DNA from: a virus
Direction: 5' to 3' (one strand)
Length of the DNA stretch: 64,000 nt
IMG/VR virus record: IMGVR_UViG_3300045988_123080
In this document: in pieces, positions 3,424 through 23,838 of the stretch
Layout: every line of letters begins with the position of its first letter
Position numbering within the stretch: the first letter of the stretch is position 1
Translations under genes and position numbers: made by a program
Notes under the pieces: model-generated
Told to the model about the DNA's origin: nothing
Databases searched by the model: none
What the model saw: the letters and a program-made list of their open reading frames with translations, nothing else

Positions 3424-3425
3424 AA

Positions 3426-6392: not shown

Positions 6393-6395
6393 ATT

Positions 6396-6620
6396 ATGAT
6401 GGTATATGGAAACATAACGTGTAATCGCTGTGGCATTACATGGTATGGCCCTAAATGTGGAAAGCTCTATTGTGATAAATGTCGTAAGATAATAAGAAAT
6501 GAGGCATCCATTCGATGCAAGAATAAAAAGAAACATAAACCAACATTTGTTGAGATTGTAAGAATGGCAGATGCAGAGGGATTATCTTACGGAAAATACT
6601 GTTTGAAGTATGGAATTTGA
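6396..6620 (+). CDS. small Cys4 Zn-ribbon protein
   Basis: CNRCG...CGKLYCDKC motifs, 74 aa. Confidence 0.45.
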   Translation: MMVYGNITCNRCGITWYGPKCGKLYCDKCRKIIRNEASIRCKNKKKHKPTFVEIVRMADAEGLSYGKYCLKYGI

Positions 6621-11329: not shown

Positions 11330-12106
11330 ATGCCGAGAAGGAAAACAGTAGAAGCACTGCAATTAACGCCGAAAGAAATAGCTCGGAAGTCGCCTACTTT
11401 TATGGAGCTTCCTGAGATGGTAAGCCGTGCTGGTGAGCCTACATACTATTATGATGTGGGAGATGCTGTAGAGATTGGTCATCTTAGCGGATGCAAGATT
11501 GATGAAGTCTGCGACGGTGGTTTATATTACGGTGTTTCTTACGATGATGGATATAGGTACGAAACGTGGTTTAACATTCGTAAAGCAGGTGTTGAGAAGA
11601 AATCTCAACTGACAGAGAATGAAGATATTAAGATTTCTTACTCAAACGTGACTATTGAATCTTTACTTCACAGATACTATTTCTTTGGCATCAATTGTAA
11701 TCCGAGCTATCAACGCGGATCTGTGTGGACGGATGATGACCGTAAACTGCTTCTTGAAACAATTTTTATGGGTGGTGAAATTGGTCGATTCGTTTTAAAA
11801 AATATTGATATGGACGAATGGAATAAAAATCAGAATTACCTTTATGAAATCATTGATGGAAAGCAGAGACTTCTGACACTGACTGCATTCTACGAAGATC
11901 GTTTCCGTTACAAAGGATATCTGTATAGTGAACTCTCTAAAAAGGACAAGAGAACTTTTAATGAGACTAATATTGCTATTGCAGATTTACGGAATCTTTC
12001 TAAGAAAGATACGTTGCGTGTGTTCTTGTTGTTGAATCGTGGCGGCAAGGTTGTTACCAACGACGTACTTAATCACGCAAAAGAGTTGCTGGACGAAATG
12101 GAGTGA
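11330..12106 (+). CDS. DUF262 (ParB/GmrSD-like nuclease domain) protein
   Basis: PSYQRGSVW...IDGKQRLLTL matches DUF262 QR...DGQQR signature; TAAGATTTAGGAGG upstream. Confidence 0.6.
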   Translation: MPRRKTVEALQLTPKEIARKSPTFMELPEMVSRAGEPTYYYDVGDAVEIGHLSGCKIDEVCDGGLYYGVSYDDGYRYETWFNIRKAGVEKKSQLTENEDIKISYSNVTIESLLHRYYFFGINCNPSYQRGSVWTDDDRKLLLETIFMGGEIGRFVLKNIDMDEWNKNQNYLYEIIDGKQRLLTLTAFYEDRFRYKGYLYSELSKKDKRTFNETNIAIADLRNLSKKDTLRVFLLLNRGGKVVTNDVLNHAKELLDEME

Positions 12107-12110
12107 GTGA

Positions 12111-12446
12111 ATGATTTATACGGTTACAATGATTGACTCGTTTAAGAACGATCAGAATGCGAAATTCAGTTCGCCAGTGTCAAACACCAAAGACATCTAT
12201 TGGATGCCGGATGATAGTTGGATTGCTGGATTCTTTACAGATTTAGCAGAGGCTATTCGAGTTGTTAAAGAAAACGTGACTGACATCTTTGAACATTGTT
12301 ATAATTACGCAGTCGTTGAAGGATACGAGGAAGGTCTGTATCCAAGACCGGAATTGACGAGGTGGTTTAAATATGATGCTGAGAGTGACACAGCATTCGA
12401 GATTGAACCGCCGCTGCATAATAAGGTGGCTGGATATGCCTTTTGA
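12111..12446 (+). CDS. hypothetical protein
   Basis: 111-aa ORF. Confidence 0.4.
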   Translation: MIYTVTMIDSFKNDQNAKFSSPVSNTKDIYWMPDDSWIAGFFTDLAEAIRVVKENVTDIFEHCYNYAVVEGYEEGLYPRPELTRWFKYDAESDTAFEIEPPLHNKVAGYAF

Positions 12447-12464
12447 AGAAAGGGGATAGGAGTT

Positions 12465-12656
12465 ATGAATAGCATAAAATATGACGAGAAGGGAAATAGA
12501 CTGAATCGAATGCAAGTTATTCGGAAGATGGATAAGTTTCGAGTTTCAATGCTTCTTGAGCAGATTGTCAAGCATTCTGAGGATTATCCGTTTTCCAGAG
12601 AAGAATGGTTAAAATGGTTAAATGAACCTGCAGGAGATCGTATTGATGAGTTTTGA
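12465..12656 (+). CDS. hypothetical protein
   Basis: 63-aa ORF, GGGGATAGGAG SD. Confidence 0.4.
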   Translation: MNSIKYDEKGNRLNRMQVIRKMDKFRVSMLLEQIVKHSEDYPFSREEWLKWLNEPAGDRIDEF

Positions 12657-12680
12657 TAAAACCAATATTTTTGAAGGGAA

Positions 12681-13307
12681 GTGATTTTTATTAACTCTAA
12701 TTTGTTAATAAATCGTGAGCAAAGTGTTGCCATCGTGTGTATAATGTGCTTGCTGGCAGGGAATCTGGTATCGAAGATCAGCCCGGTAATTCAAAATCAG
12801 AGCAATTCGTACCTTTATAATAGTAGTCCTCCGGCAGTAAGTGTTGTGCAGCAAGAGGAAAAGGAACCAGAAGTCATCGTAAAAACTGTTATCGAGACGC
12901 GTGTGGTAAACTTCAGTCAGGGAAAGCGCGAACTCACTAATGATGAGCGTGCTCTTGCGGAGCAGATCGTTGCTTGTGAAGCAGGTGCTGATAGCCTAGA
13001 AGGTCAGATGGCTGTGGCTCAATGTCTTTATGATTCTGCTGTACTTGATGGTCTAACCATCCAGCAGGTCTTTAAGAAGTATGGTTATAGTTCCTTATAT
13101 AATAGGAAGGTGACGGCAGAGAACGAATTGGCTGTGTCTATGGTGTTTGATTACGGCGCTAAAATTTCAAACAAACCAATTCAATGGTTTGTGACCCCGG
13201 CGGCAGCTTCCGGCAGTTGGCACGAGCACGGAGCAACGTTCGCTGGACAATTTGGCGCACATAGGTTCTATTACAACGCGGAACTGGTTGTGGATGATGC
13301 CGAGTGA
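12681..13307 (+). CDS. putative SleB-like cell wall hydrolase (Hydrolase_2) with N-terminal TM
   Basis: EQIVACEAGADSLEGQMAVAQCLYDS resembles SleB/CwlJ Hydrolase_2 core; hydrophobic N-terminus. Confidence 0.45.
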   Translation: MIFINSNLLINREQSVAIVCIMCLLAGNLVSKISPVIQNQSNSYLYNSSPPAVSVVQQEEKEPEVIVKTVIETRVVNFSQGKRELTNDERALAEQIVACEAGADSLEGQMAVAQCLYDSAVLDGLTIQQVFKKYGYSSLYNRKVTAENELAVSMVFDYGAKISNKPIQWFVTPAAASGSWHEHGATFAGQFGAHRFYYNAELVVDDAE

Positions 13308-13342
13308 ATGGCATCATCTAAAATTTTAAACTTTTACAACAA

Positions 13343-13400
13343 CAAAAAGATGTATAATATATTGACCAAAACAAAAAGATGTGTATAATATATCTTGAAA
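13343..13400 (+). promoter_or_regulatory. tandem imperfect ~27-bp repeats each carrying TGTATAAT -10-like box
   Basis: acaaaaagatgtataatata / acaaaaagatgtgtataatata; TTGACC 15 bp upstream of the second. Confidence 0.4.
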
Positions 13401-13413
13401 GTTGTCTAAATGA

Positions 13414-13758
13414 GTGGAGGGCGGTGTTTTAATGCGTGAGAGAAATGTTCTGAAGGTCATACGAGTTGATGACTTTTTAAAGTACATAAGAAAAAAGAGA
13501 GTGTGGGTTTGTTTTATTTGCAATGGTGTAGATGTTCACATGGTCTGTAACAAAATGAACGATGTTGGAGCAGAGACACATGGGATCGTTAAAGGCATTG
13601 GCTTCTTCGGAAACGAAAGTCATATTGAGCTGCGGCAAGAATGCCACGAAGTAAGGAGGATTGAGCTTAGACCGGGCGATAAAGAGAAAGCGTATGAGAT
13701 GATCTTCGATAACACAAGCGTGTTCGTATCAGAGAACCCCGAGTTGTACGGGCACTAA
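13414..13758 (+). CDS. hypothetical protein (upstream of MazF-like gene)
   Basis: probable ATG 13432 after GGAGGGCGG; 109 aa; no MazE-like motif seen. Confidence 0.4.
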   Translation: MEGGVLMRERNVLKVIRVDDFLKYIRKKRVWVCFICNGVDVHMVCNKMNDVGAETHGIVKGIGFFGNESHIELRQECHEVRRIELRPGDKEKAYEMIFDNTSVFVSENPELYGH

Positions 13759-13776
13759 AAATATTTAAAAAACCTC

Positions 13777-13805
13777 TTGACTTCTGCAAGGGTATCCTGT
13801 ATAAT
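13777..13805 (+). promoter_or_regulatory. consensus sigma70-type promoter TTGACT-17-TATAAT (embeds GTATCCTGTATAATATAG motif)
   Basis: TTGACT 13777-13782, 17-bp spacer, TATAAT 13800-13805; 44 bp upstream of mazF-like start. Confidence 0.65.
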
Positions 13806-13848
13806 ATAGCTATGGAACGGAGCTACACTATTATAGAGGAGAAAGACT

Positions 13849-14268
13849 ATGGATAGTAATATTGACCCAAAGGTCGGAGAGGTTTGGTTGGTTGATCTAT
13901 CCAATGCGACAGGTCACCAGCAGCGCGGTATTCGACCGTTTGTTGTGACGAGCAACAACAAGCGCAACTTCTTCAGTCCCACAATCAAAGGGAATCCGTT
14001 GTCTTCCAGAATATACAAGCGTTCTCCGGTTCATGTCCTGCTCTCAAAGGAAGATTGCGATTTTCTGGATGTTGACAGTATCGTTCTTTGTGAAGAGACC
14101 GATACACTTAACAAAGGACAGTTCATCAAGAAACTTGGTGTCTTATCGGAGCGTCAGATGAATATGATCGCAATGGCAAGATGCAAGGATGAACCGTTCT
14201 TACTCGCAGCATTCCTGAGCGGCGTACAACATACTATGGAATTTCAGAATTTTGCCGCATTTGCTTGA
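13849..14268 (+). CDS. MazF/PemK-family endoribonuclease toxin-like protein
   Basis: GEVWLVDLSNATGHQQRGIRPFVVTSNNKRN...SIVLCEETDTLNK...LGVLSERQMNMIAMA matches PemK/MazF signature. Confidence 0.7.
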   Translation: MDSNIDPKVGEVWLVDLSNATGHQQRGIRPFVVTSNNKRNFFSPTIKGNPLSSRIYKRSPVHVLLSKEDCDFLDVDSIVLCEETDTLNKGQFIKKLGVLSERQMNMIAMARCKDEPFLLAAFLSGVQHTMEFQNFAAFA

Positions 14269-14321
14269 TTTTTTATAAGGGTTAATGGTACACTACATAT
14301 AATAAGAAGGAGTGTGCCACT

Positions 14322-15248
14322 ATGCTTACTGAAGAGAAAATCAACGCTTTTGCCGAAAAGTATTCTGATAGAAGCGGTGAGTTTGTTATATCGACACTTA
14401 ACCATGTTATGGATTACGAGGCCGAGCGTGGGTATGAGTTGTTTGACTTCACAAAAGATGATTTTGTAAAGATGTTTGCCAAATACAATTGGGTGAATTC
14501 AAGTCGGTCGTTCAGAAATGTAAAGTCAATAATTACAGGTTACATCAAAAGTGAGTATCGAGCGAGCATGTATGACTTAGCTGAATTCTCGGAGAGCGAC
14601 GTGAGTTCAGACAATATGTACGAGGACAAGTATTTTGCGTCAGCTGATGAGTTTGTTGATTTCTTGGACAAGTATGAAGAACCATATCAGATTCGTATGA
14701 ACGTGATTGCCGTGCTGTACTGGATTGGTCTTACTTCCGAAGAGGTTTCTAATCTGACAATTAACGATGTTGATTTTGAATCATGTACTGTTCTGAATAA
14801 GACCGGTGTTGACGCGAGATTGATGAATATCATTAAGCAGTGTTATGAAATGAAACAATACGATGCTCCAAATATGGGAGGATACAGAACGTTTTATGTC
14901 ATAAATGGTGATTACATTCTTCGCAAAACAGAGGATAGAACTGGTGCAGACAGTGATTCAAGAATGTCTACAAATACGATTCATAGTTATTTCACGCGCT
15001 TGAATGATATTCTCGAAAGAAGATATCATTCAAAGGCTTTAGACCGAAGACATCTGACCAGAAACGGCGAGTATGTCAAGGTTTATAACTACTGTAAAAC
15101 TCATCCAGAATTTAATCTTGCAGAACTTAGTTTCGGAAATGGTAAAGATCCTCTTGCGGACATTATCGGAAGAAAGTGCAGCAAGGTTGCCTACATTAGT
15201 TTCCGGCAAGGATACAAGGGCTGGATCGAATACTTCCACAAAAATTAA
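14322..15248 (+). CDS. hypothetical protein with degenerate tyrosine-recombinase-like box I region
   Basis: IAVLYWIGLTSEEVSNLTINDVDF resembles recombinase box I but Arg replaced by Thr; no HxxR/Y evident. Confidence 0.3.
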   Translation: MLTEEKINAFAEKYSDRSGEFVISTLNHVMDYEAERGYELFDFTKDDFVKMFAKYNWVNSSRSFRNVKSIITGYIKSEYRASMYDLAEFSESDVSSDNMYEDKYFASADEFVDFLDKYEEPYQIRMNVIAVLYWIGLTSEEVSNLTINDVDFESCTVLNKTGVDARLMNIIKQCYEMKQYDAPNMGGYRTFYVINGDYILRKTEDRTGADSDSRMSTNTIHSYFTRLNDILERRYHSKALDRRHLTRNGEYVKVYNYCKTHPEFNLAELSFGNGKDPLADIIGRKCSKVAYISFRQGYKGWIEYFHKN

Positions 15249-15250
15249 AA

Positions 15251-15280
15251 ACAGGGGGCTTCAGCCCCTTGATTTTAACA
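15251..15280 (+). terminator. rho-independent terminator
   Basis: acaGGGGGCttcaGCCCCttgatttt: GC stem-loop followed by T-rich tract after stop at 15248. Confidence 0.65.
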
Positions 15281-15286
15281 TTGTAA

Positions 15287-15304
15287 CTATATAACACAGG
15301 ATAC
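15287..15304 (+). promoter_or_regulatory. recurrent 18-bp motif CTATATAACACAGGATAC (forward copy 1)
   Basis: one of six near-identical copies; ~25 bp upstream of start of 15328 operon. Confidence 0.45.
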
Positions 15305-15327
15305 AGAAAATAGTATTTGAATGGAGA

Positions 15328-17403
15328 ATGATAACAATGTCTGATTTCAAGAAATTTCGTGCACTGCTGCAGGACCACTTCAATGAGATGGTGAAGGGCG
15401 AAAGCCCTCTGTTTATCACCGATGCAGACGAGGATGAACTGTATAATCTGTATCTCGACAGCTTCCCAGCTGGCACGAATGAGTTGTTCCGTAAGCGGCG
15501 CGAGTATGACTGTTCCTGCTGCCGCCGTTTCGTAAAGAACATCGGTAAGCTGGTTTCCTTTATGGATGGTCAGATGGTTACCGTCTGGGATTTCGATACC
15601 AAGTCCGATGTTTATCAGCCGGTTGTGGATGCGCTGGCTGCCTATGTGAAAACCTGCGCTGTTGTGAACCCGTATTACGTCAGCCGCAATATGATCTCTG
15701 ATAGCAAGTTTGGCACTGAGATGAACTATGAGTATGACGCTGATCATAAGGCGGTTCATACCTGGGATCATTTCGTTGTCGAGATTCCTCAGCGGTTCAT
15801 TGTGCGTCCCGATGACGTACCTACCAAGATGGCTCAGTGGCGTGATTCCGCCAATGTGTTCAAGCGCTCTCTGGAGGAGCTAACCATGGATGCCGTGGAC
15901 ACCGTGCTTGAGCTGATTGCGCAGAACAGCCTGTATCGCGGTAAGGAGTTTGAATCTCTGGTTCGTGGCTTCAAAATCGATAAGCAAGTGTATGATCGTC
16001 TGCCTGATGAAAAGAAGTCCGCTTATGTTTGGATGGCTCCCGGCGGAGCTTCGATGAACCGGCTTCGCATCCGCAATACGGCAATCGGTACTCTGCTGGT
16101 GAACCTGAGCGAGGGCATGGACGTGGATGCTGCTGTGTCTGCGTTTGAGGCCATTGTTGCTCCCGCCAACTATAAGCGTCCTAAGGCGATTTTTACCAAG
16201 AAGATGCTGGAAGACGCACAGAAAACCGTCACTGAGTTGGGCTATATGAACAGTCTGGGTCGCCGGTTTGCTACTCTGGACGACATCACCGTAAATAACG
16301 TTTTATTCTGTAACCGAGACGCAGCCCCTCGTATTACTGGCGCTGTGAATCCGTTTGAAGCAATGGCGAAGACTGTCGCAATCGATCCTAAGAAGTTCGG
16401 CCGCGCAGAGGAAATCGGTATTGATAAGTTTATCAAGGACGTGCTGCCCACCGCGACTGGTCTGGAACTGTTTATGGAGAATCGGTTTGAGAAGAATATG
16501 ACGTCTCTGATTGCTCCGCAGGATAAGAACGCGCCGTCTATGTTCAAGTGGGCGAATGGTTTCAGTTGGGCGTATACGGGTAACGTGGCTGACAGCCAGA
16601 TCCGTGAGAACGTCAAGAATGCAGGCGGTAAGGTTGATGGCGTGTTGCGTTTCTCTATTCAGTGGAACGATAAGCAGTGCGAGTGGGATGGAAATGACCT
16701 TGATGCCCACTGTGTTGAACCGAACGACTTTGAGATCTATTTTGGCAACAAACGAGATTGGAGTACTGGTGGCAATCTGGATGTAGATATTATTCATCCT
16801 GATCGCGATGAGGCCGCTGTTGAGAATATTACATGGCCTGACATCAAAAAGATGAAGGATGGTAAATACGAGTTCTTTGTTCATTGCTTCTCTAACCGTG
16901 GCGGCAAAACCGGCTTCCGCGCAGAGATTGAATTTGATGGTCAAATCTACTCCTTCAATTACAATATTCCGCTGCGTCAGACTCAGAATGTTTCTGTTGC
17001 TACTGTTGTGTTGAATGATGGGCAGTTTACTATTAAGGAACATCTCAATAGTTCTACTTCTTCCCGTGAAATCTGGGGTGTGAATTCCAATCAGTTTGTA
17101 CCGGTGTCCGTAGCAATGTATTCTCCGAACTACTGGGACGAGCAGAGTGGTAACGGTAATCGTCATTACTTCTTCATGCTCAAGGATTGTGTAAACCCTG
17201 AAAAGCCCAATGGATTCTACAATGAATTCCTGAAGGCGGAACTGCTACAGCATAAGCGAGTATTCGAGGCTCTTGGTTCTCAGATGGCAGTTCAGTCGGT
17301 AGATGACCAGCTGTCCGGCGTTGGGTTCTCTGAGACGAAACATGATTCCTTTGTTGTCAAGGTTCAGGGCGCTACTGAGCGGGTTCTGAAAGTTGTTATT
17401 TAA
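15328..17403 (+). CDS. large hypothetical protein (691 aa) co-operonic with Pnkp
   Basis: no motif recognised; first gene after recurrent motif and terminator; followed by coiled-coil protein and Pnkp. Confidence 0.5.
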   Translation: MITMSDFKKFRALLQDHFNEMVKGESPLFITDADEDELYNLYLDSFPAGTNELFRKRREYDCSCCRRFVKNIGKLVSFMDGQMVTVWDFDTKSDVYQPVVDALAAYVKTCAVVNPYYVSRNMISDSKFGTEMNYEYDADHKAVHTWDHFVVEIPQRFIVRPDDVPTKMAQWRDSANVFKRSLEELTMDAVDTVLELIAQNSLYRGKEFESLVRGFKIDKQVYDRLPDEKKSAYVWMAPGGASMNRLRIRNTAIGTLLVNLSEGMDVDAAVSAFEAIVAPANYKRPKAIFTKKMLEDAQKTVTELGYMNSLGRRFATLDDITVNNVLFCNRDAAPRITGAVNPFEAMAKTVAIDPKKFGRAEEIGIDKFIKDVLPTATGLELFMENRFEKNMTSLIAPQDKNAPSMFKWANGFSWAYTGNVADSQIRENVKNAGGKVDGVLRFSIQWNDKQCEWDGNDLDAHCVEPNDFEIYFGNKRDWSTGGNLDVDIIHPDRDEAAVENITWPDIKKMKDGKYEFFVHCFSNRGGKTGFRAEIEFDGQIYSFNYNIPLRQTQNVSVATVVLNDGQFTIKEHLNSSTSSREIWGVNSNQFVPVSVAMYSPNYWDEQSGNGNRHYFFMLKDCVNPEKPNGFYNEFLKAELLQHKRVFEALGSQMAVQSVDDQLSGVGFSETKHDSFVVKVQGATERVLKVVI

Positions 17404-17417
17404 GAGGAGAAATTATT

Positions 17418-17801
17418 ATGGAAAAGAATCTGTTTGAAATTGCAACCCGTAATCGCTATCGCTTCAACTATAAGGGTATTATGACTGTTGAAGATCTGTG
17501 GGATCTGAGTGTCGAGGCACTAGATGCGATTTTTAAGACCCTGAATCGTCAGAAGAAGACCGCAGACGAAGACTCCTTGCTGGCTGTTAAGAGTGCCGAA
17601 AATACCGAACTGGCAAACAAGATTGAGCTGGTCAAGTATATCGTGTCTGTCAAGCTGGCTGAATCTGAGGCTCGTGTGGATGCAGCCGAGAAGAAGGCGC
17701 AGCGCGATAAGATTATGAAGATTGTGGCAAAGAAGAAGGACAAGGAGCTGGAAGATATGGACGTAGACCAGCTGATGAAGAAGCTGGAAGAGTTGAACTA
17801 A
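17418..17801 (+). CDS. hypothetical coiled-coil protein
   Basis: 127 aa, Lys/Glu-rich heptad-like; GAGGAGA SD. Confidence 0.45.
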   Translation: MEKNLFEIATRNRYRFNYKGIMTVEDLWDLSVEALDAIFKTLNRQKKTADEDSLLAVKSAENTELANKIELVKYIVSVKLAESEARVDAAEKKAQRDKIMKIVAKKKDKELEDMDVDQLMKKLEELN

Positions 17802-17870
17802 AATAGACATTTTATAAAGAATTGGAAATAAATAAATAACGATAATACGTTAAGCAGAGGGAGAAAAACG

Positions 17871-20081
17871 ATGAGAACTTTGCTTCTTTTCCGTGGAGCA
17901 CCCGGATGCGGGAAGTCCACCTATATTAAAGAGCATGATCTGGAAAAGTATACGCTTAGTGCCGATACGATTCGCCTTATGTGTCAGGGTGGTCAGGAAA
18001 CCCCGGCTGGCACAATGGAGATCTCTCTCCAGAACGATGGTGTTGTCTGGGATATGCTCTTTAAACTGTTGGAGGTTCGGATGTCTCACGGTGAATTTAC
18101 CGTGATTGATGCAACGAACTCTAAAACTGTCGAAATCAATCGCTATAAGAATCTTGCCAAGCAGTACAGGTACAGAATGTACATCATCGACATGACTGAT
18201 TTGCCGATTAGCGAGTGTAAACGGCGTAATGCGCTTCGCACTCCTCTGAAGAGAGTCCCGGATGCTGCCATTGATAAAATGTATGCACGATTCGCAACGC
18301 AGAAGATTCCGTCTGGTGTGACTGTACTCTCGTCAGATGTAAATGTCCTTGAGAAATTGAACTATGTTCCGCAGGACTTTAACAACTGGAGCAAAATTCA
18401 TATCATCGGTGATGTGCATGGGTGTTACAGTTGCTTGAAAGAGTATCTTGGCGACCTGAAGGATGATGAACTGTATATTTTTGTTGGCGATTATCTGGAT
18501 CGTGGAATTGAAAATGTAGAGATGTTCAAGTTCCTTTGTGATGTTGTAGACAATAATCGGAAGAATGTGATTTTCCTTGAAGGAAATCATGAACATTGGC
18601 TAAACAAGTGGGGGCACGATGAGCCTGTTCAGAGCGAGGAGTTCGCAAACTACACTCGTCCGCAGCTTTTCAAAGCAGGGATTGACCATAATACGGCTCG
18701 TAAGGTTTATTCGAGAGTAGGACAGTGCTCCTATTTTGATTACGACGGGAAAAGATACTTCGTTAGCCATGGTGGTTTGAGTTATTTGCCTGAATTTCTA
18801 CCATTCGTGTCTACTGACCAGATGATTAAAGGTGTAGGTCGCTATCCTGATATGCTAACCGTGGCTGAGTCTTGGGAAAAATCGATGCCGGATAGCTACA
18901 TTCAGATCTTCGGTCATCGAAATGTGCAGGATGTTCCTATTGATATGGGGCATCGGTGCTACAACCTCGAAGGAAAAATCGAGTTTGGTGGATATCTCCG
19001 TTGCGTGGAACTTGAACATGGTCAGTCAATCAAATGTGTAGAAACAAAGAATGATGTGTTCCGAAAAGAGGAGCCAAAGACTGAAACTGCCGTTGAAATG
19101 AAAACTGAGTTCGATAACGCAGAACTTGTCAGTAAGATGCGTCAAAGCAAATATGTGTTTGAGAAGCGATTCGGAGATATTTCTTCTTTCAACTTTTCTC
19201 GTGAAGCATTTTATAAGAAGCATTGGGATGAGGTTTCTACCAAAGCAAGGGGATTGTTCATTAACACAAAGACGAATAAGATTGTAGCTCGAAGCTATGA
19301 TAAGTTCTTTGCGGTCGATGAGCGGAATGAAACGAGAATTGGAAACCTACAGAACACTTTGAAGTTCCCGGTGACTGCATATCTGAAGGAAAACGGATTT
19401 CTTGGCATTGTCTCGTATGATGCAGAAAAGGATGGTATGTTCATTGCAAGTAAATCCACTCCTGAAGGGCCTTTTGCAGATATGTTCCGAAAGATTCTCA
19501 TGGATACGACCTCTGATGAAGACCGTAAGAATCTGAAGGAAGTTGCAAAAGAGAATGGCTCCATCATTTTTGAAGTGATTGATCCTGTGAATGATGCTCA
19601 TATCATCGAATATAAGAAACCGCACATTGTTTTGCTGGATATTGTTGCGAATGATATGAACTTTAGTGTGATGGATTACGATGATCTGAAGCGTGTTGCT
19701 GAAAAGTGTCATTTGCAGATTAAGGAGAAGGTTAAGACTTTTGAGAACTGGAGTGAATTCTATTCTTGGTACGAGGAAGTCATGAACGAGAACTATCTGC
19801 ATCATGGCTTTGAACACGTTGAAGGCTTTGTTTTGCGAGACAGCAACAATTTCATGTTTAAGATGAAGCTTCCTTATTATAAGCACTGGAAGTTCTTGCG
19901 TGGTGTTATGCAGAGCGTTCAGAAGCGTGGCTATTATGAAAATACTGCAAAGTTGTTTACTGCTGAAGATAATTTATTCTATGGTTGGATGCGTGAACAA
20001 CGAGAGAAAGACAAAGAGTCTTTCTGCAAGAAGGGTATTATTCAGTTACGGAACGAATTCTATGAGAATCAGCACGAATAA
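17871..20081 (+). CDS. pnkp: polynucleotide kinase-phosphatase-ligase (Pnkp-like RNA repair enzyme)
   Basis: Walker A GAPGCGKST kinase; calcineurin-type phosphoesterase GDVHGC / GDYLDRG / GNHEHW; C-terminal nucleotidyltransferase-like KENGFLG; same order as Clostridium thermocellum Pnkp. Confidence 0.75.
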   Translation: MRTLLLFRGAPGCGKSTYIKEHDLEKYTLSADTIRLMCQGGQETPAGTMEISLQNDGVVWDMLFKLLEVRMSHGEFTVIDATNSKTVEINRYKNLAKQYRYRMYIIDMTDLPISECKRRNALRTPLKRVPDAAIDKMYARFATQKIPSGVTVLSSDVNVLEKLNYVPQDFNNWSKIHIIGDVHGCYSCLKEYLGDLKDDELYIFVGDYLDRGIENVEMFKFLCDVVDNNRKNVIFLEGNHEHWLNKWGHDEPVQSEEFANYTRPQLFKAGIDHNTARKVYSRVGQCSYFDYDGKRYFVSHGGLSYLPEFLPFVSTDQMIKGVGRYPDMLTVAESWEKSMPDSYIQIFGHRNVQDVPIDMGHRCYNLEGKIEFGGYLRCVELEHGQSIKCVETKNDVFRKEEPKTETAVEMKTEFDNAELVSKMRQSKYVFEKRFGDISSFNFSREAFYKKHWDEVSTKARGLFINTKTNKIVARSYDKFFAVDERNETRIGNLQNTLKFPVTAYLKENGFLGIVSYDAEKDGMFIASKSTPEGPFADMFRKILMDTTSDEDRKNLKEVAKENGSIIFEVIDPVNDAHIIEYKKPHIVLLDIVANDMNFSVMDYDDLKRVAEKCHLQIKEKVKTFENWSEFYSWYEEVMNENYLHHGFEHVEGFVLRDSNNFMFKMKLPYYKHWKFLRGVMQSVQKRGYYENTAKLFTAEDNLFYGWMREQREKDKESFCKKGIIQLRNEFYENQHE

Positions 20082-20150
20082 CTAAGATATTTTCTTCCTC
20101 CGAAAATGCCCTGCGCGGGGCTGACAGCCGGGAAAGACTGGCAATTATAT

Positions 20151-20240
20151 GCCCAAGTGATGGAATGAGGTAGACATGAAGCTCCCAAACAGCTTTGCGT
20201 GAGATATCGCGTGCGGTTTCGAATACCGCCTTGGGCACCA
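20151..20240 (+). tRNA. class II tRNA, probable tRNA-Leu(CAA), unusual C33
   Basis: 7-bp acceptor gcccaag/cttgggc + ACCA; T-arm gcggtTTCGAATaccgc; anticodon arm aagct-cccaaac-agctt; long variable arm. Confidence 0.5.
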
Positions 20241-20280
20241 GAGTCCGAATATTCACCTATTAAATACTGGAGGCAAGTTC

Positions 20281-20478
20281 ATGAAAAGAATTGAAAAATT
20301 TTCAAAAGAAGAGATCGAGCAGATTTTTAAAGAGAGCAACAACTGGGCTACTGTGGCTGAGAAACTTGGTTACAGCAAATTCGGAGGAAGCTCTAGGGAT
20401 GTAATCCAAACATATGCAGACGAAAATAATATTGACACTTCTCATTTTACGGGACAAAGAATAATTCCAAAAGAATGA
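20281..20478 (+). CDS. small hypothetical protein, possible HTH/NUMOD-like DNA-binding
   Basis: 65 aa, WATVAEKLGYS segment; sits between tRNA genes. Confidence 0.35.
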   Translation: MKRIEKFSKEEIEQIFKESNNWATVAEKLGYSKFGGSSRDVIQTYADENNIDTSHFTGQRIIPKE

Positions 20479-20499
20479 AGCTGTATTTTATACAGCTTC
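20477..20499 (+). other. 9-bp stem hairpin (processing/terminator-like) before tRNA-Leu
   Basis: gaagctgta-tttta-tacagcttc; no strong T tract. Confidence 0.3.
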
Positions 20500-20506
20500 T
20501 GTATAT

Positions 20507-20594
20507 GCCGCAGTGATGGAGTGACATACATTTCCCGCTTAAACCGGGACGCCTGAAACACGGATCGTGGGTTTGAATCCCACCTGCGGCACCA
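20507..20594 (+). tRNA. tRNA-Leu(TAA), class II
   Basis: acceptor gccgcag/ctgcggc + ACCA; anticodon arm tcccg-cttaaac-cggga; T-arm gtgggTTTGAATcccac. Confidence 0.7.
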
Positions 20595-20598
20595 TATC

Positions 20599-20671
20599 CA
20601 GAATGTAGTGTAATGGCAGCACGCTGCGTTTGGGACGCAGAAGAGCGATTCGAATTCGACATTTTGGACCA
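20599..20671 (+). tRNA. tRNA-Pro(TGG)-like, imperfect D and T stems
   Basis: acceptor ccagaat/attttgg (one GU) + ACCA; anticodon arm ctgcg-tttggga-cgcag; T-loop TTCGAAT but only 3-bp T-stem. Confidence 0.4.
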
Positions 20672-20767
20672 GTGGAGTATTCCACTTGCTTTTCATGAAT
20701 ACCTTCCTATTATTCTTGGCTCTCCAAAAAAACGGAGCAGTAGGACGCAGCAAGCCAAGTTACATAA

Positions 20768-20857
20768 TGAGGGTTCGCCAAGTGGTAAATGGCATCTGGC
20801 TTTGACCCAGACAGCGTGCTTTATAGCCGATCGTCGGTTCGATCCCGACACCCTCAA
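20768..20857 (+). tRNA. tRNA-Gln(TTG) with ~16-nt insertion in variable region
   Basis: acceptor tgagggt/accctca; Gln-like D-arm gccaagtggtaaatggc; anticodon arm tctgg-ctttgac-ccaga; 21-nt variable region; T-arm gtcggTTCGATCccgac; no encoded CCA. Confidence 0.55.
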
Positions 20858-20862
20858 TTTAT

Positions 20863-20951
20863 GGACACGTGATGGAATCGCAGACATGAAAGATTTAGGC
20901 TCTTTTGCCGTTAACAACGGTGTGCCCGTTCAAATCGGGTCGTGTCCACCA
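20863..20951 (+). tRNA. tRNA-Leu(TAG), class II
   Basis: acceptor ggacacg/cgtgtcc + ACCA; anticodon arm aaaga-tttaggc-tcttt; variable hairpin ccgtt-aaca-aacgg; T-arm gcccgTTCAAATcgggt. Confidence 0.7.
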
Positions 20952-21054
20952 TTATCAACTTATGGTTGCGTACCGTTTGTTGATCTCCTTTGACCACTAT
21001 TATTCCCGGCTCGCCAGTGATGGTGCAGTAGTGCTTTGTAAGTCGGGTTTTCAT

Positions 21055-21129
21055 GCAGCGGTCGTACAACGGCTAGTACATCAGCCTTCCAAGCTGAGGA
21101 CGAGGTTTCGATTACCTTTCGCTGCACCA
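21055..21129 (+). tRNA. tRNA-Gly(TCC) (A73 discriminator)
   Basis: acceptor gcagcgg/tcgctgc + ACCA; D-arm gtac-aacggcta-gtac; anticodon arm tcagc-cttccaa-gctga; T-arm gaggtTTCGATTacctt. Confidence 0.6.
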
Positions 21130-21310
21130 GTCTCGTACGGGTAGGATCTTTAGCGGTTAGATCCGGCCGCGCCTGTGCGAGATACCACCCCGAAAGGGGT
21201 TAACGAAATTATCCATGTACGTTATTCTCGGCTCGCTCGGAAGAGTGCAGCGTGCCTTTGTAAGCCGAGTATCCCAGCCTAGTAATGTCAGTTGCTAGGT
21301 TGGTTCTTAT

Positions 21311-21386
21311 GCGACTGTAGTTCAATTGGCAGAGCGTCAGATTTCCAATCTGAATGTTGCGGGATCATACCCCGTCAGTCGCTCCA
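21311..21386 (+). tRNA. tRNA-Gly(TCC) (U73, C2:G71, G3:C70), atypical T-loop
   Basis: acceptor gcgactg/cagtcgc + TCCA; D-arm gttc-aattggca-gagc; anticodon arm tcaga-tttccaa-tctga; T-loop atcatac non-canonical. Confidence 0.55.
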
Positions 21387-21517
21387 CACGCAGCCCCTTA
21401 CGCTGCACCGGTTACTCAGAGCCGAAAGAAACCTATATGTTACGACATGGTTGCCAAGAGTGATCATATTGGAACGCGACGTAGCTTGGATAGTGAGAAT
21501 TAAATTCTGAGGTATAC

Positions 21518-21585
21518 GGCTGGATAGCTTAATGGTAAAAGCGCTCGGAAACACCGAGAGATAAGGTTCGATTCCTTCACTGGCA
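21518..21585 (+). ncRNA. tRNA-like element / probable pseudo-tRNA
   Basis: canonical D-arm tagcttaatggtaaaagc and T-arm taaggTTCGATTccttc but no complementary acceptor stem and a 5-nt anticodon loop (ctcgg-aaaca-ccgag). Confidence 0.35.
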
Positions 21586-21613
21586 TCGCGCCGATGAAAG
21601 TCGGCGTTTGCAT

Positions 21614-21689
21614 GGAATAGTAGCTCAGTTGGTTAGAGCCGACAACTTATAATTGTCAGACGCGAGTTCAAATCTCGACTATTCCACCA
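21614..21689 (+). tRNA. tRNA-Ile(TAT) (or AUA-reading tRNA)
   Basis: acceptor ggaatag/ctattcc + ACCA; D-arm gctc-agttggtta-gagc; anticodon arm gacaa-cttataa-ttgtc; T-loop TTCAAAT. Confidence 0.65.
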
Positions 21690-21795
21690 GCCCGAAGGGG
21701 CGTACATAAAACCTGCTAGAACTTTTGTTTTATAAGCGTTGAAATAATATGACGTTGATACGTCTATTGTTTTTCGCTTATTCTCTGAGATTTAG

Positions 21796-21830: not shown

Positions 21831-23295
21831 GTGAAACATTATGGAAGTATTTGCGAGATTGATGGTTCTAAGATTGAACCTGTCTCGTGTATCACTGGTG
21901 GTTCACCTTGTTAGCCAAGATCTTTCTATTGCCGGTAAGCGGGCAGGTTTGGCTGGAGAACGGTCTGGTCTATTTATGGAAATGATTCGTGTGATAAAAG
22001 AAATGAGGGATACCACCAATGGAGAATATCCAAAATTTGCAATCTGGGAAAATGTTAGAGGAGCACTCTCCTCAAACAACGGAGAAGACTTCCGATGTGT
22101 CTTGGAAGAATTTGCACACATCGTCGAAGCAGACGCTACAATTCCTAAACCTTCGGAAAAAGGTGGAAAATGGTCTAAATCCGGCGCAATTTCCGGTAAT
22201 GGATGGTCTTTGGCATGGAGACTCTTCGATGCTCAATACTGGGGAGTGCCCCAACGTCGTCAAAGAATCGCGCTTGTCATGGATTTTGGAGGACAACGTG
22301 CCGCAAAGATATTATTTGAGCGCACGGGCGTGCCAGGGAATTCTGACGAGAGCATCCCGACGTGGCAAGGTGCTGCCAGAATTGCTGAAAAATGCATTGT
22401 TGGAAATGATCGAGTGGTGGGAGAAAAAAGCTTTTGTATCGTCGGAAACATGATTGACAGAGAAACCAACATGAATGGGACTGGTGTAAAAGAAGATACT
22501 GCTTTCACTATAAACACTATTGACCGTAATGCTGTTGCCTACACTTTAAAGATTCGTTCAGGATGCGAAGGTGGTGGCAAAGGCGCACTGGTACAAATCG
22601 AGAAGAGCGCAACGCTTTCTACATTGCAAGATCAAACGTTAATTTGCTTGGCAGACAACACCTCTTTACATAATTCAAAACAAAAGATTTCGCCGGTGGT
22701 GTTTGAGAGTCACAGTCAGGATGCTCGATACACTCAACAGGGCGACACAAGTCCGGCTTGTACGGCTCAATGGGGGACTGGTGGCAATAATATGCCGCTT
22801 GTTGCTGAAAAGAAAACCTTTGCAATGCAACGCATTGGTGAATACAAGGAAAGTGAACAAGCTAGTACGATGAAATCTCGTGACTACAAGGATGCTACTG
22901 ACTTGATTGCAGAGAAGGAAACGAAGAATCTGCAATGGATTGTTCGTCGCCTGACTCCTGTCGAGTGTGAACGACTTCAAGGGTTCCCTGATGGATGGAC
23001 TGATATTGGCGAGTGGGTTGATGAGAATGGTAAAAAGCACAAACCAGCTGATTCTCCTCAGTACAAGGCACTCGGTAATTCAATCGCTTTGCCTCAGTGG
23101 TATTGGATTTTCCAGAAAATGAAGCCGTATATCGGTGAAAATCCTACGCTTGGCAGTCTTTTCGATGGGATTGGTGGCTTTCCGCTTGTCTTTGAAAGTA
23201 CGTATGGTGATGGTACTGCTATCTGGGGATCTGAAATCGAACCGTTCTGCGTTGCAGTAACTAAGAAGCATTTTCCAGAAAAGCAAGGAGGATAA
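21831..23295 (+). pseudogene. C5 cytosine DNA methyltransferase, circularly permuted motif order, frame broken at catalytic PCQ motif
   Basis: GTG 21831 after AAGGAGG gives ...ICEIDGSKIEPVSCITGGSPC then TAG; +1 frame continues QDLSIAGKRAGL..ERSGLF (IV-V), ENV (VI), QRR (VIII), RLTPVECERLQGFPDGW and GNS (IX-X), then FDGIGGF...SEIEPF (I-II) at the C-terminus. Confidence 0.7.
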
Positions 23296-23296
23296 T

Positions 23297-23838
23297 TTGC
23301 CAGAAAACAAAGGATATTTAACAGCTGACCGATCTGCGGCAGGCGATGAGCGATACACACCGGTTTACGCGGTTATTCCATTGCTTGAATTTGCCCCCCG
23401 TCGAGTGAAGCAGTGATTTGGTGTCCGTTTGATAAAGAGTGGTCTGCCTTTGTGAAGGTGTTCAGAGATGCTGGATATAAAGTAGAATGTAGCCACATTG
23501 ATAACGGGCAAGATTTCTTTACATATGAACCAGAAAATTGGGATGTTATAATTTCAAATCCTCCTTTTAGCAAGAAGGATGAAGTATTACGTAGAGCCTA
23601 TGAACTCGGAAAGCCGTTTGCTCTACTGCTTCCTGCAAATAGTATTCAGGGTAAGACGCGATTTGATATTTTCAAAAATGACGTACAGATGCTATGTTTT
23701 GATTCTCGAATAGGATTCATGGACCCTAAACACGCAGACAGCCCTGTCGAGGGAGTGTCTTTTGGAAGTGCATACTTCTGTAGAAATTTTCTTCCCAGTA
23801 AGTTAGAGTTACGAAAACTTGATAAGAAAATCTCATAA
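23297..23838 (+). pseudogene. phage Dam-like N6-adenine DNA methyltransferase (NPPF motif), frameshifted in C6 run
   Basis: frame A LPENKGYLTADRSAAGDERYTPVYAVIPLLEFAP ends TGA 23414-23416; frame B from 23413 ...IWCPFDKEW...DVIISNPPFS...LLLPANS; join point at cccccc 23393-23398. Confidence 0.55.

Follow-up and report, generated by a model that had tools for sequence, protein, structure and literature searches.

A predicted single-chain RNA kinase-phosphatase-ligase encoded before a phage tRNA array, behind a separable DUF8224 cassette

The region 15287-21700 of a gut phage (IMG/VR record IMGVR_UViG_3300045988_123080; the window is the whole analyzed stretch of 64,000 nt) carries a large protein gene, a putative RNA repair gene and a cluster of tRNA genes on the same strand, which raises the question of whether these elements form a single RNA repair module. 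A preliminary description, made from the sequence alone, had read the region in this way. On balance, the region is better explained as a mosaic of three separable units behind one promoter-like motif at 15287, in which the enzyme most likely helps the phage to survive host tRNA-cutting enzymes and the large upstream protein belongs to a separate cassette; taken as a whole, we consider this explanation moderately probable.

Table 1. Features of the region, with positions in the window.
Feature	Position	Strand	Remarks
Terminator-like hairpin (GC stem, then T-run)	15253..15269	+	Ends upstream integrase-like gene
Recurrent 18-bp motif CTATATAACACAGGATAC	15287..15304	+	-10-like TATAAC/TATAAT box and conserved ACAGGATAC
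Two-gene cassette, DUF8224 and 127-aa genes	15305..17795	+	Clean 2.5-kb insertion relative to contig L089; AAAATAG at both junctions
DUF8224 protein (PF26675, phrog_1735), ORF of 691 aa	15328..17403	+	PHROG profile, homologue Pfam assignments
127-aa helical/coiled-coil protein (phrog_2018)	17418..17801	+	Constant DUF8224 partner
Repair-gene cassette	17816..20090	+	Missing from contigs L010, L013, L034 and L045
Putative trifunctional RNA repair enzyme, 736 aa (phrog_8238)	17871..20081	+	Pfam, PHROG and PDB profile matches
tRNA-Leu(CAA), 90 nt, encoded CCA end	20151..20240	+	ARAGORN only
65-aa HNH homing endonuclease remnant	20281..20478	+	Between two tRNA genes
tRNA-Leu(UAA)	20507..20594	+	ARAGORN, Rfam
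tRNA-Pro(UGG)	20598..20671	+	ARAGORN, Rfam
tRNA with anticodon UUG (Gln), 90-nt body, long variable arm, CCA not encoded	20768..20857	+	ARAGORN, Rfam
tRNA-Leu(UAG)	20863..20951	+	ARAGORN, Rfam
tRNA-Gly(UCC), first	21055..21129	+	ARAGORN, Rfam
tRNA-Gly(UCC), second	21311..21386	+	ARAGORN, Rfam
Weak tRNA-like element, degenerate-looking anticodon loop	21519..21585	+	Rfam, 30.1 bits against a gathering score of 29; not ARAGORN
tRNA-Ile(UAU)	21614..21689	+	ARAGORN, Rfam
Terminator-like hairpin, then T-run	21751..21764	+	Would close the unit; next 18-bp motif copy at 21796

Three plus-strand ORFs of 691, 127 and 736 aa precede the tRNA genes (Table 1). The 736-aa protein comprises a kinase domain at aa 4-142 (nt 17880-18296; Pfam AAA_33, E 4.8e-20), a metallophosphoesterase domain at aa 175-353 (nt 18393-18929; Pfam Metallophos, E 6e-16), and a ligase region spanning aa ~434-733. 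The Pfam core of the latter (aa 458-670, nt 19242-19880) matches RNA_lig_T4_1 (PF09511, E 1.4e-40) with 140 bits against a gathering cut-off of 28.3 and covers model positions 1-227 of 227. The protein also matches the phrog_8238 'RNA ligase' profile over its full length (E 7e-224). These matches bear out the earlier reading of a single chain with a kinase, a calcineurin-type phosphatase and a ligase-like C-terminus, and every motif quoted for it is present: GAPGCGKST (aa 9-17), GDVHGC (180-185), GDYLDRG (206-212), GNHEHW (238-243) and KENGFLG (506-512). Residue conservation was assessed in an alignment of six phage homologues with 39-50% identity. In the kinase, the Walker A residues G12, G14, K15, S16 and T17 are invariant, as are S30, D32 and R35. 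Invariant phosphatase residues include D181, H183, D207, D210-R211, N239-H240, H300 and H349. In the ligase, motif I (K506-x-N508-G509), motif IV (E651-G652) and motif V (K664/K666) are strictly conserved; the PF09511 match together with the invariant K506 supports the nucleotidyltransferase identity and the lysine for which the C-terminal domain was checked. Judged by these motifs, the protein is a single-chain kinase-phosphatase-ligase with three intact catalytic sets, and its ligase is assigned to the Rnl1/Trl1 type and not to the bacterial Pnkp type. Other enzymes had been named elsewhere in the window. The metallophosphoesterase at 34313 was confirmed (34313-35077); the small HAD phosphatase at 33410 was not, because 33410-33751 matches only phrog_1238/24386, which does not establish a HAD fold. 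The sole match of 56672-57145 is a PHROG of unknown function.

The terminator reported near 15251 and the recurrent 18-bp motif at 15287 were both recovered. The motif has six sites in the window at ≤3 mismatches, compared with 0.01 expected: 13792(-), 15287(+), 21796(+), 26086(+), 41118(-) and 41179(+). The copy at 15287 is probably a promoter or an operator for the downstream unit. Where relatives lack the DUF8224 cassette, the repair gene lies directly 3´ of this motif, as at the L089 junction. No strong terminator-like site was found on the plus strand from 15408 to 20670. Because this interval has no such site, hairpins at 15253 and 21751 flank the genes, and motif copies stand at 15287 and 21796, the genes of 15287-21764 are plausibly read as one transcription unit, which fits the earlier suggestion that the repair gene is transcribed from the motif at 15287.

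The 691-aa protein and the coiled-coil protein that follows it are present as described; the former, called unrecognizable, was assigned to the DUF8224 family. It matches phrog_1735 over positions 1-672 of 673 (E 5.6e-257), and PF26675 (DUF8224) is the precomputed assignment of all its close homologues. The Pfam scan used here did not hit DUF8224, perhaps because the model is missing from that Pfam copy. The true start is probably the ATG at 15337, which would give 688 aa, since a GGAG lies at 15322-15325 and the homologues are 688 aa long. Five domains are predicted, and only aa ~430-575 adopt a recognizable predicted fold, a TerD-like β-sandwich. The 691-aa protein had 0 hits in Pfam, NCBIfam and PADLOC, and PDB sequence and profile searches gave nothing below E 0.1. 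Foldseek searches with full-length and N-terminal DUF8224 returned TerD-type matches only and no RNA-repair fold. The likeness to the TerD family (tellurite resistance/stress; PDB 2qz7, 2kxt, 3ibz) is confined to aa ~430-575, and no Pfam family, TerD included, was detected in the 691-aa protein at E ≤ 1. The invariant acidic residues D459, D485, D487 and E499 are located in the motifs DLDAH and LDVD, which look similar to TerD's own Ca-binding DLD motifs. Unlike the multi-domain DUF8224, TerD proteins are single-domain proteins of ~190 aa; outside the TerD-like part, ~540 aa of DUF8224 match no solved structure. Hen1 or another methyltransferase, RtcB, RNA ligase, 2H and HD proteins were each considered as the identity of the 691-aa protein, and no similarity in sequence or fold was found.

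DUF8224 is abundant, with about 4000 clusters at 50% identity and 542 phage records. The 127-aa gene accompanies it at 80/82 loci (78/80) and is its sole universal neighbor. The same pairing occurs in Cba120, a Bacillus Tsarbombavirus and a Klebsiella Mydovirus, and the homologues in Cba120 and a Bacillus phage are 40-41% identical to the 127-aa protein of the window. Contig L089 connects window position 15304 straight to 17796. DUF8224 and the 127-aa gene are thus a widespread phage gene pair in their own right, which has by chance come to be inserted at this site.

The alternative is that DUF8224, possibly joined by the 127-aa protein, serves the repair enzyme as a functional partner or Hen1-like accessory, or else inhibits a tRNA-targeting host defense, and that 15287-21700 is one module. 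Adjacency of the three genes on the same strand behind apparently one promoter motif would suit such a partnership, as would a second lineage (L049-L054, DUF8224 59-60% identical) which has an enzyme homologue (46-49%) at 3-6 kb downstream and an upstream tRNA array. A small PF09414 RNA ligase comes after the DUF8224-127-aa pair in L011 and after the DUF8224-127-aa-AAA genes in six further contigs (L017-L019, L025, L027, L032); in total, an RNA ligase lies within about 6 kb at 17 of 80 DUF8224 loci. However, these 17 loci all lie in gut phages that are related and share a syntenic accessory region, and they are thus not independent events, and no RNA ligase was detected nearby at the other 63. 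Near-identical repair genes occur in 80 contigs, 72 of which have neither DUF8224 nor the 127-aa gene within 10 kb, and relatives with this same DUF8224 gene have no repair gene. Among cultured phages, the two families have largely separate distributions: DUF8224 is found in Ackermannviridae, Bacillus Herelleviridae, Caulobacter and Klebsiella phages, and the enzyme in Staphylococcus, Lactobacillus and SPbeta-like phages. In Cba120, Emiliahah and the Klebsiella Mydovirus, DUF8224 has replication, NAD-salvage and AAA genes beside it and not RNA repair genes. The protein itself offers a TerD-like domain only, with none of the methyltransferase, ligase, RtcB, 2H or HD folds. A partnership is therefore not supported by these comparisons, because the 691-aa protein is a common phage protein found mostly apart from the enzyme. 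The suggestion that it is a novel partner in the repair pathway thus finds no support, and we regard the one-module reading as highly unlikely.

The link between the repair gene and the tRNA genes is of a different kind. In 79/79 IMG/VR contigs with downstream sequence, the array begins 69-136 nt after the repair-gene stop, and its order is constant (Leu-Leu-Pro-Gln-Leu-...-Gly-Met/Ile); the placement of the gene directly before the tRNA cluster, noted previously in this phage, is a fixed physical coupling. In contig L011, the slot is held by an unrelated 221-aa RNA ligase (PF09414, E 1.6e-16), which ties RNA ligation as such to the tRNA array. The repair gene is nonetheless dispensable, being polymorphic in presence and absence among relatives: in the four contigs that lack its cassette (L010, L013, L034, L045), the array is kept and the 127-aa gene abuts it.

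ARAGORN calls eight tRNAs in 20151-21689, including three for Leu (CAA, UAA, UAG). Rfam adds the weak ninth element at 21519-21585 and omits 20151-20240, so the previous count of nine tRNA or tRNA-like genes with three tRNA-Leu holds. Most relatives have a CAU tRNA at the position of tRNA-Ile(UAU), and full-length copies of the HNH homing endonuclease occur elsewhere in the array of relatives. The unusual members, i.e. the 90-nt Gln-anticodon tRNA and the degenerate tRNA-like element, could be taken to indicate that the enzyme acts in processing of the array and not in repair or counter-defense, and that it heals and joins the products of endonucleolytic maturation or breaks associated with introns and endonucleases, for example at the odd UUG tRNA or at homing-endonuclease insertions. 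Such a role would agree with the constant placement of the gene just before the array and with the eukaryal tRNA-splicing ligase Trl1 being the closest relative of the ligase domain. However, close relatives hold arrays with the same tRNAs without the enzyme, so maturation cannot depend on it; neither ARAGORN nor Rfam called a tRNA intron in the array, and the inspected Twort-like and SPbeta-like homologues do not lie beside tRNA arrays. We give a processing role very little credence.

A second alternative holds that the array only supplies tRNAs for codons that are rare in the host and that the repair enzyme is an unrelated accessory that happens to share this variable region, for example one that mends RNA cut by the MazF-like RNase of the phage or maintains phage transcripts. 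Faecalibacterium, in whose assemblies DUF8224 homologues occur, is a G+C-rich genus. The phage has a G+C content of about 41%, seven of the eight array anticodons start with U34 and read A-ending codons, and the array-matched codons are used at 7-27% of their families. Since these features fit codon supplementation in a G+C-rich host, the array needs no defense explanation. The presence or absence of the repair gene among relatives also agrees with an accessory function. A MazF/PemK-family RNase gene was identified by Pfam at 13849-14268, 4 kb upstream, and RNA breaks made by the phage itself would be an alternative source of substrate. Against this, relatives that lack the repair gene carry the MazF and integrase-like genes just the same, the repair gene lies immediately 5´ of the array in all 79 contigs, and the unrelated RNA ligase in the same slot of L011 is hard to explain without a tie between ligation and the array. 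We consider this alternative rather unlikely.

The preferred reading remains that the enzyme counters tRNA cleavage. A host anticodon nuclease or another tRNA-cutting defense would break tRNAs during infection; we infer both this trigger and the tRNA substrate. The P-loop kinase would phosphorylate 5´-OH RNA ends, the lambda-phosphatase-type binuclear metallophosphoesterase would open and remove the 2´,3´-cyclic phosphate, and the Rnl1/Trl1-type ATP-dependent ligase would reseal the break via lysyl-AMP on K506. Broken tRNAs would thus be healed and sealed while the phage tRNAs make up losses, and the enzyme and the array together may act as translation insurance. Phage tRNAs and RNA ligases have been discussed as counter-measures against tRNA-targeting defenses (PMC7824862).

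Compared with known systems, the enzyme shares with bacterial Pnkp of Clostridium thermocellum (CthPnkp) the order of P-loop 5´-kinase, lambda-phosphatase-type binuclear metallophosphoesterase and C-terminal ligase. Residues 4-304 align to TIGR04075 (E 1e-20), the kinase matches the CthPnkp kinase structures 4gp7 and 4jst, and H183 is the equivalent of CthPnkp H189. As a strict test of bacterial Pnkp, the NCBIfam equivalog TIGR04075 has a whole-protein cut-off of 750 bits; the phage protein scores 73.4 bits, and only profile positions 10-324 of 851 align. Unlike that of bacterial Pnkp, the ligase belongs to PF09511 (Rnl1/Trl1), and the ligase part of TIGR04075 is unaligned. The comparison with bacterial Pnkp drawn in the preliminary description thus stands for the domain order, kinase and phosphatase and fails for the ligase (73 vs 750 bits). 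The bacterial Pnkp ligase depends on Hen1, forming the Pnkp-Hen1 RNA repair system. The neighbors scanned (DUF8224, phrog_2018, tRNAs and DNA methylases) include no evident Hen1 gene. Because the Rnl1/Trl1-type ligase places the protein outside the bacterial Pnkp model, there is no ground to expect Hen1 dependence, and the lack of Hen1 is therefore no anomaly.

T4 Pnkp and Rnl1 repair tRNA-Lys cleaved by the PrrC anticodon nuclease. The present enzyme has the three chemical steps and the ligase family PF09511 in common with this pair, is likewise phage-encoded, and is proposed to rescue cleaved tRNAs. Unlike the T4 pair, which consists of two polypeptides, it is one chain, and a calcineurin-like metallophosphoesterase replaces the DxDxT (HAD) 3´-phosphatase of T4 Pnkp; the Pfam scan found no HAD-family domain in the 736-aa protein. 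The ligase is nearer to Trl1 than to T4 Rnl1. Among solved structures, the LIG domains of fungal tRNA ligases match aa 434-733 best (9qw7, E 4.5e-18; Chaetomium 6n0v, E 5e-10), and T4 Rnl1 structures rank after them (E ~2e-6 to 6e-6).

Fungal and plant Trl1 (LIG-KIN-CPD) is also a trifunctional heal-and-seal enzyme and is the closest solved relative of the phage ligase, with a match that spans the whole LIG and takes in its C-domain. The alignment places K506-E-N-G against K-A-N-G (motif I), EGFV at 651-654 against EGFV (motif IV) and K664-x-K666 against K-Y-K (motif V). In contrast to Trl1, the domain order is reversed (KIN-phosphatase-LIG), and a metallophosphoesterase stands in place of the 2H cyclic phosphodiesterase. 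A 2´-PO4-binding triad has been described for Trl1-type LIG (PMC11404444); H577 and K674 of the phage ligase align with the 2´-PO4-binding H227 and R337 of Chaetomium LIG, and the Arg-Arg of the triad is Lys in the phage ligase (K671, K674). Across the six phage homologues, H577 and K674 are invariant and K671 is not. The CthPnkp His equivalent to H183 gives 2´-OH ends (PMC1920235). The signals for end chemistry are mixed: H183 points to 2´-OH ends, yet the ligase is closest to the 2´-PO4-dependent Trl1.

The nearest counterparts are the phrog_8238 homologues, found in 113 phage records, which have the same three domains at 37-45% identity over 99-100% of the length. We know of no phrog_8238 protein that has been biochemically characterized, and literature searches also found none. 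These homologues belong to other phage families, and those inspected (Twort-like, SPbeta-like) are not beside a tRNA array. They are annotated as 'RNA ligase', 'tRNA ligase' or 'polynucleotide kinase' and come from Twort-like Staphylococcus, SPbeta-like Bacillus, Brochothrix and Lactobacillus phages, so that the kinase-phosphatase-ligase architecture with an Rnl1/Trl1 ligase is already catalogued in phages.

The window covers part of a phage genome; its G+C content is approximately 41%, and nearly all genes are located on the + strand. Near-identical contigs of 110-150 kb from human gut samples occur in IMG/VR, and Faecalibacterium assemblies contain close homologues of one window gene. The preliminary description of the region is real and well drawn, and requires only small corrections. 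For example, the true start of the 691-aa ORF is probably ATG 15337, because GGAG is located at 15322-15325 and the homologues are 688 aa long. The 18-bp motif in front of this ORF is composed of a TATAAT-like box and a conserved ACAGGATAC. Six copies occur in the window (13792, 15287, 21796, 26086, 41118 and 41179, in both orientations), compared with 0.01 expected by chance; two of these, 41118(-) and 41179(+), are paired in inverted orientation with a spacing of 61 bp. The motif may serve as a promoter element and also be bound by a phage regulator. A weak promoter-like site was found at 20121. Because no strong terminator-like site is present between 15408 and 20670, the two genes of the DUF8224 pair, the repair gene and the tRNAs are predicted to be co-transcribed from the motif at 15287. 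Directly after this unit, an ORF resembling a C5-cytosine DNA methyltransferase aligns with the C5 methylase model over two non-contiguous stretches and may have undergone rearrangement or fusion. Together with a short fragment resembling an adenine methyltransferase, it forms a region (21841-23838) that varies among close relatives.

Features of the window and of relative loci (L numbers denote fetched loci or contigs compared with the window)
Feature	Sequence	Position	Strand	Remark
ORF, 114 aa	window	13414-13758		no PHROG hit
Strong promoter-like site TTGACT-17-TATAAT	window	13777-13805		before MazF gene; overlaps inverted 18-bp motif copy
MazF/PemK-family endoribonuclease gene	window	13849-14268	+	Pfam E 2.8e-19
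Terminator-like hairpin	window	15253-15269
18-bp motif CTATATAACACAGGATAC	window	15287-15304	+	-10-like box inside
ORF, 691 aa (DUF8224)	window	15328-17403	+
ORF, 127 aa (phrog_2018)	window	17418-17801	+
ORF, 736 aa (repair enzyme)	window	17871-20081	+
tRNA gene array	window	20151-21689	+
HNH homing endonuclease remnant, 65 aa	window	20281-20478	+	between two tRNA genes
tRNA Gln, anticodon UUG (ARAGORN)	window	20768-20857	+	Rfam 52.8 bits
Last array tRNA	window	21614-21689	+	anticodon UAU (Ile, reads AUA)
Terminator-like hairpin	window	21751-21764
18-bp motif, next copy	window	21796	+
C5-cytosine DNA methyltransferase-like ORF	window	21841-23295	+
Adenine methyltransferase-like fragment	window	23413-23838	+
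PF09414 ligase, 221 aa	L011	12552-13214		before tRNA array
PF09414 ligase, 221 aa	L017, L018, L019, L025, L027, L032	~14800-15450		directly after AAA+ ATPase
Full-length HNH gene (PF13392/PF01844)	L045	~2955-3530		inside array
Full-length HNH gene (PF13392/PF01844)	L011	~14235-14825		inside array
Full-length HNH gene (PF13392/PF01844)	L013	~13460-13900		inside array
5-hmdU DNA kinase gene (PF18723)	L005 (CBA120)	5298-6503		E 1.6e-83
vWA-domain protein, 738 aa (phrog_2426)	L005 (CBA120)	11346-13562
NAD-salvage genes	L001/L002	15081-19582
NAD-salvage genes	L007	9982-13787
NAD-salvage genes	L170	2278-3822

The domain content of the 736-aa protein makes it a credible heal-and-seal enzyme. Pfam assigns a P-loop kinase (AAA_33) to aa 4-142, a calcineurin-like metallophosphoesterase to aa 175-353 and an RNA ligase (PF09511, RNA_lig_T4_1) to aa 458-670, the last over the whole model (E 1.4e-40); each motif quoted in the preliminary description was found in its place. 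The kinase part matches the kinase domain of Clostridium thermocellum Pnkp in structure searches, and the phosphatase part matches lambda phosphatase and PP1/PP2A. Over aa 434-733, the nearest solved structures come from the ligase domain of fungal Trl1 (9qw7, E 4.5e-18; Chaetomium 6n0v/6n67), with T4 Rnl1 ranking behind at about E 2e-6. In the Trl1 alignments, KENG (506-509) corresponds to the KANG of motif I, EGFV (651-654) to motif IV and K664-x-K666 to motif V. The adenylyltransferase lysine was checked and is present (K506). An alignment with five phage homologues of 39-50% identity, from an SPbeta-like phage, Twort, a Brochothrix phage and two gut contigs, shows that the catalytic residues of all three domains are invariant.

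The coupling between this enzyme and the tRNA array is solid. Among 80 IMG/VR loci whose enzyme is at least 90% identical, the array starts 69-136 nt past the enzyme stop codon in all 79 with downstream sequence. The order in these 79 loci is constant: Leu(CAA), Leu(UAA), Pro, Gln, Leu(UAG), [His], Gly, [Gly], Met/Ile. Codon supply alone is the main rival explanation for the array. U is the first base in seven of the eight anticodons, and the codons read by the array account for 7-27% of their families in phage genes. The presumed host, Faecalibacterium, is G+C-rich, which also counts for codon supply. The best evidence here that RNA ligation and the array are functionally tied comes from gene content, since two non-homologous RNA ligases alternate in one slot before one array. 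In L011, a relative contig, the enzyme slot is taken by an unrelated 221-aa RNA ligase (PF09414, E 1.6e-16). The small ligase is absent from the window, and in six other contigs it completes the gene order DUF8224, 127-aa gene, AAA+ ATPase, PF09414 ligase. Four close relatives (L010, L013, L034 and L045) keep the array and lack the enzyme; homology to the window ends at 17815 and resumes before or inside the array. The repair enzyme is dispensable. Dozens of near-identical gut phage genomes constitute a clean natural experiment, differing in three cassettes around one constant array: DUF8224 with the 127-aa gene, the trifunctional repair enzyme, and the alternative small RNA ligase. This polymorphism lends support to the view that phages carry tRNA repair and tRNA replacement as one package to counter tRNA-targeting immunity, and the relatives supply matched phage pairs for testing it.

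The array itself exhibits several unusual features. The UUG tRNA is 90 nt long, with a variable arm of ~21 nt, a discriminator A and no encoded CCA, whereas the remaining array tRNAs encode CCA. A Gln anticodon on a long-arm body is unusual for bacteria. The UAU anticodon of the last array tRNA is shared by a few relatives (L116, L139 and L161), and CAU occupies the same position in most of those compared (L010, L013, L024 and most of L089-L168), where Met or lysidine-dependent Ile2 is possible; one contig carries AUA (called Tyr). From these comparisons, the anticodon of the final tRNA seems to be evolving quickly. The HNH remnant in the window and the full-length HNH genes at differing positions in three relatives suggest that homing endonucleases move in and out of the array. 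A possible internal source of RNA breaks is the MazF-like RNase gene 4 kb upstream, which is equally present in relatives without the enzyme. No obvious antitoxin for MazF was found, and the 114-aa ORF located upstream has no PHROG hit.

The preliminary description had suggested that the 691-aa protein could be a novel repair partner. This proposal is not supported: the protein is a common phage protein, and neither DUF8224 nor the 127-aa gene is located within 10 kb in 72 of the 80 enzyme-bearing contigs. In one relative (L089), window position 15304, the end of the motif, is joined straight to 17796, which places the motif directly before the enzyme gene. Relative to L089, window 15305-17795 is therefore an insertion of 2.5 kb with AAAATAG at both junctions, and the DUF8224 cassette is inserted exactly at the 3' edge of the 18-bp motif. 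A relative with an 86% identical DUF8224 has only DUF8224 and the 127-aa gene in common with the region, and the only DNA match in cultured collections, MT835544, spans just these two genes. Among cultured phages, the host ranges of the DUF8224 and enzyme families barely overlap. A functional partnership would be favored by a second gut lineage, in which an enzyme homologue lies 3-6 kb downstream of DUF8224, and by the small PF09414 ligase after the DUF8224 module in seven loci. However, these loci belong to related phages with a common accessory region, and because of this sharing a partnership is considered highly improbable. RNA-repair factor is not a suitable annotation for DUF8224. An RNA ligase and a phosphoesterase annotated under the DUF8224 match in Klebsiella phage OY979426 suggested an association that was rejected, since our own ORF calling and a PHROG scan showed the annotation to be misregistered; the actual neighbors are a DNA polymerase, HNH endonucleases, phrog_2018, NMN adenylyltransferase and PnuC. 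The deposited annotation of this locus (L007; OY979426.1, 12228-26222) misfits the sequence, with small pseudogene-flagged CDSs lying across a 676-aa open reading frame, and the product names under matches in this record are therefore misleading.

The 691-aa protein belongs to DUF8224 (PF26675, precomputed assignment) and to phrog_1735 (E 5.6e-257). An exhaustive HMMER search returned 3987 cluster representatives at 50% identity, and tblastn located the family in 542 phage records, which places it, with ~4000 clusters, among the commoner large phage proteins lacking known function. Carriers include Ackermannviridae (CBA120 orf153), Bacillus Tsarbombavirus, Caulobacter phiCbK-like phages, and Klebsiella, Vibrio and Xanthomonas phages, and the family spans Ackermannviridae, Herelleviridae, Caulobacter and gut phages. 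A literature search on PF26675/DUF8224 found nothing. The 127-aa gene (phrog_2018) lies directly 3' of DUF8224 in 78 of 80 IMG/VR loci, the two exceptions being contigs that end at that point, and clustering places it in 80 of 82 DUF8224 loci. CBA120 (orf151), a Bacillus phage (gp214) and a Klebsiella Mydovirus carry it as well. The 127-aa protein is the sole constant neighbor of DUF8224, and the rest are variable; this strictly conserved small partner makes DUF8224 a defined target for functional work. The AAA+ ATPase phrog_2376 follows the pair in 34 of 82 loci and is missing from the window, and it was rejected as an obligatory third partner. Elsewhere, DUF8224 adjoins replication genes, NAD-salvage genes or small ORFs. 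In CBA120, the pair is located between the 5-hmdU DNA kinase gene and the vWA-domain protein. Unrelated phages repeatedly carry NAD-salvage genes (NAMPT, PRPP-synthetase-like, NAD synthase, Macro domain, NMN adenylyltransferase and PnuC) beside either DUF8224 or the repair gene, which suggests shared anti-defence islands.

Searches of the 691-aa protein against Pfam, NCBIfam and PADLOC gave no matches that would identify it as Hen1, RtcB or a ligase, the identities raised earlier, and PDB sequence and profile searches returned nothing. When all 59 diverse family members were scanned at E <= 1, no consistent family emerged, PARP_reg appearing in only one. An AlphaFold2 model built from these 59 sequences is locally confident (pLDDT 87.5; pTM 0.57), and Foldseek matches it to the TerD-type structures 3ibz and 2kxt. 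No methyltransferase, nucleotidyltransferase, RtcB, 2H or HD fold was found in the model or by Foldseek. A TROVE/Ro60 or DUF2828-like RNA-binding platform was likewise unsupported by Pfam and fold searches. In the N-terminal domain, C65 and H148 are invariant and C62 is nearly so. The acidic set of the TerD-like domain (D459, D485, D487, E499 and N500) is invariant and resembles TerD Ca2+ sites; this domain is probably Ca2+-binding. The best guess is that DUF8224 is a Ca2+- or ligand-binding protein that acts with its coiled-coil partner, in some loci also with an AAA+ ATPase, to take over the host or counter its defences, a guess drawn from the place of the genes in accessory islands, where RNA ligases, tRNA arrays and NAD-salvage genes adjoin the pair. 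A system of this kind could detect or counteract a stress or defence signal of the host, perhaps in loose cooperation with genes for translation rescue. The combined proposal, that the pair constitutes a widespread uncharacterised phage system for counter-defence or host takeover and that, separately, the enzyme performs Trl1-like 2'-phosphate sealing, is tentative, and we would put its probability as low.

In the proposed mechanism, transcription from the motif at 15287 would run through the DUF8224 insertion and the repair gene into the tRNA array. The kinase would phosphorylate the 5' end, the metallophosphoesterase would take off the cyclic phosphate, the ligase would seal via K506-AMP, and the phage tRNAs would replace targets beyond rescue. 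By analogy, this scheme would follow the T4 Pnkp/Rnl1-PrrC paradigm; RNA repair in large phages has been discussed (PMC7824862).

The kinase-phosphatase-ligase architecture is already catalogued in phages, and the 736-aa enzyme adds to that family. phrog_8238 ('RNA ligase') matches it end to end (E 7e-224), and full-length homologues occur in 113 phage records, including Twort ORF008, many Staphylococcus Herelleviridae, SPbeta-like Bacillus phages, and Lactobacillus, Brochothrix and Fusobacterium phages, under the labels 'RNA ligase', 'tRNA ligase' or 'polynucleotide kinase'. A literature search found no biochemical study of the phrog_8238 family. The earlier assignment to the bacterial Pnkp architecture holds only for the kinase-phosphatase module, and strictly speaking the enzyme is no bacterial Pnkp. 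With the NCBIfam equivalog TIGR04075 it reaches 73 bits, the cut-off being 750, and the alignment is confined to model positions 10-324 of 851, which cover kinase and phosphatase. Its ligase is instead of the Rnl1/Trl1 family. The ligase of bacterial Pnkp requires a Hen1 partner (Shuman and Huang laboratories). With an Rnl1/Trl1-type ligase, such a partner is therefore not expected, and a missing Hen1 is not remarkable.

In the 736-aa enzyme, healing is of the bacterial Pnkp type and the sealing domain is Trl1-like, and its end chemistry may be either 2'-OH or 2'-PO4. Its phosphatase retains His183, the equivalent of CthPnkp H189; CthPnkp with H189 produces 2'-OH ends, and the change to Asp leads to 2'-PO4 ends (PMC1920235, PMC2190708). 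Yet Trl1, the nearest relative of the ligase, depends on a 2'-PO4, which it requires by way of a His-Arg-Arg triad (PMC11404444). The phage enzyme has H577, K671 and K674 at those positions, with H577 and K674 invariant among phage homologues. The repair enzyme could be a prokaryotic-virus case of Trl1-like, 2'-phosphate-dependent sealing.
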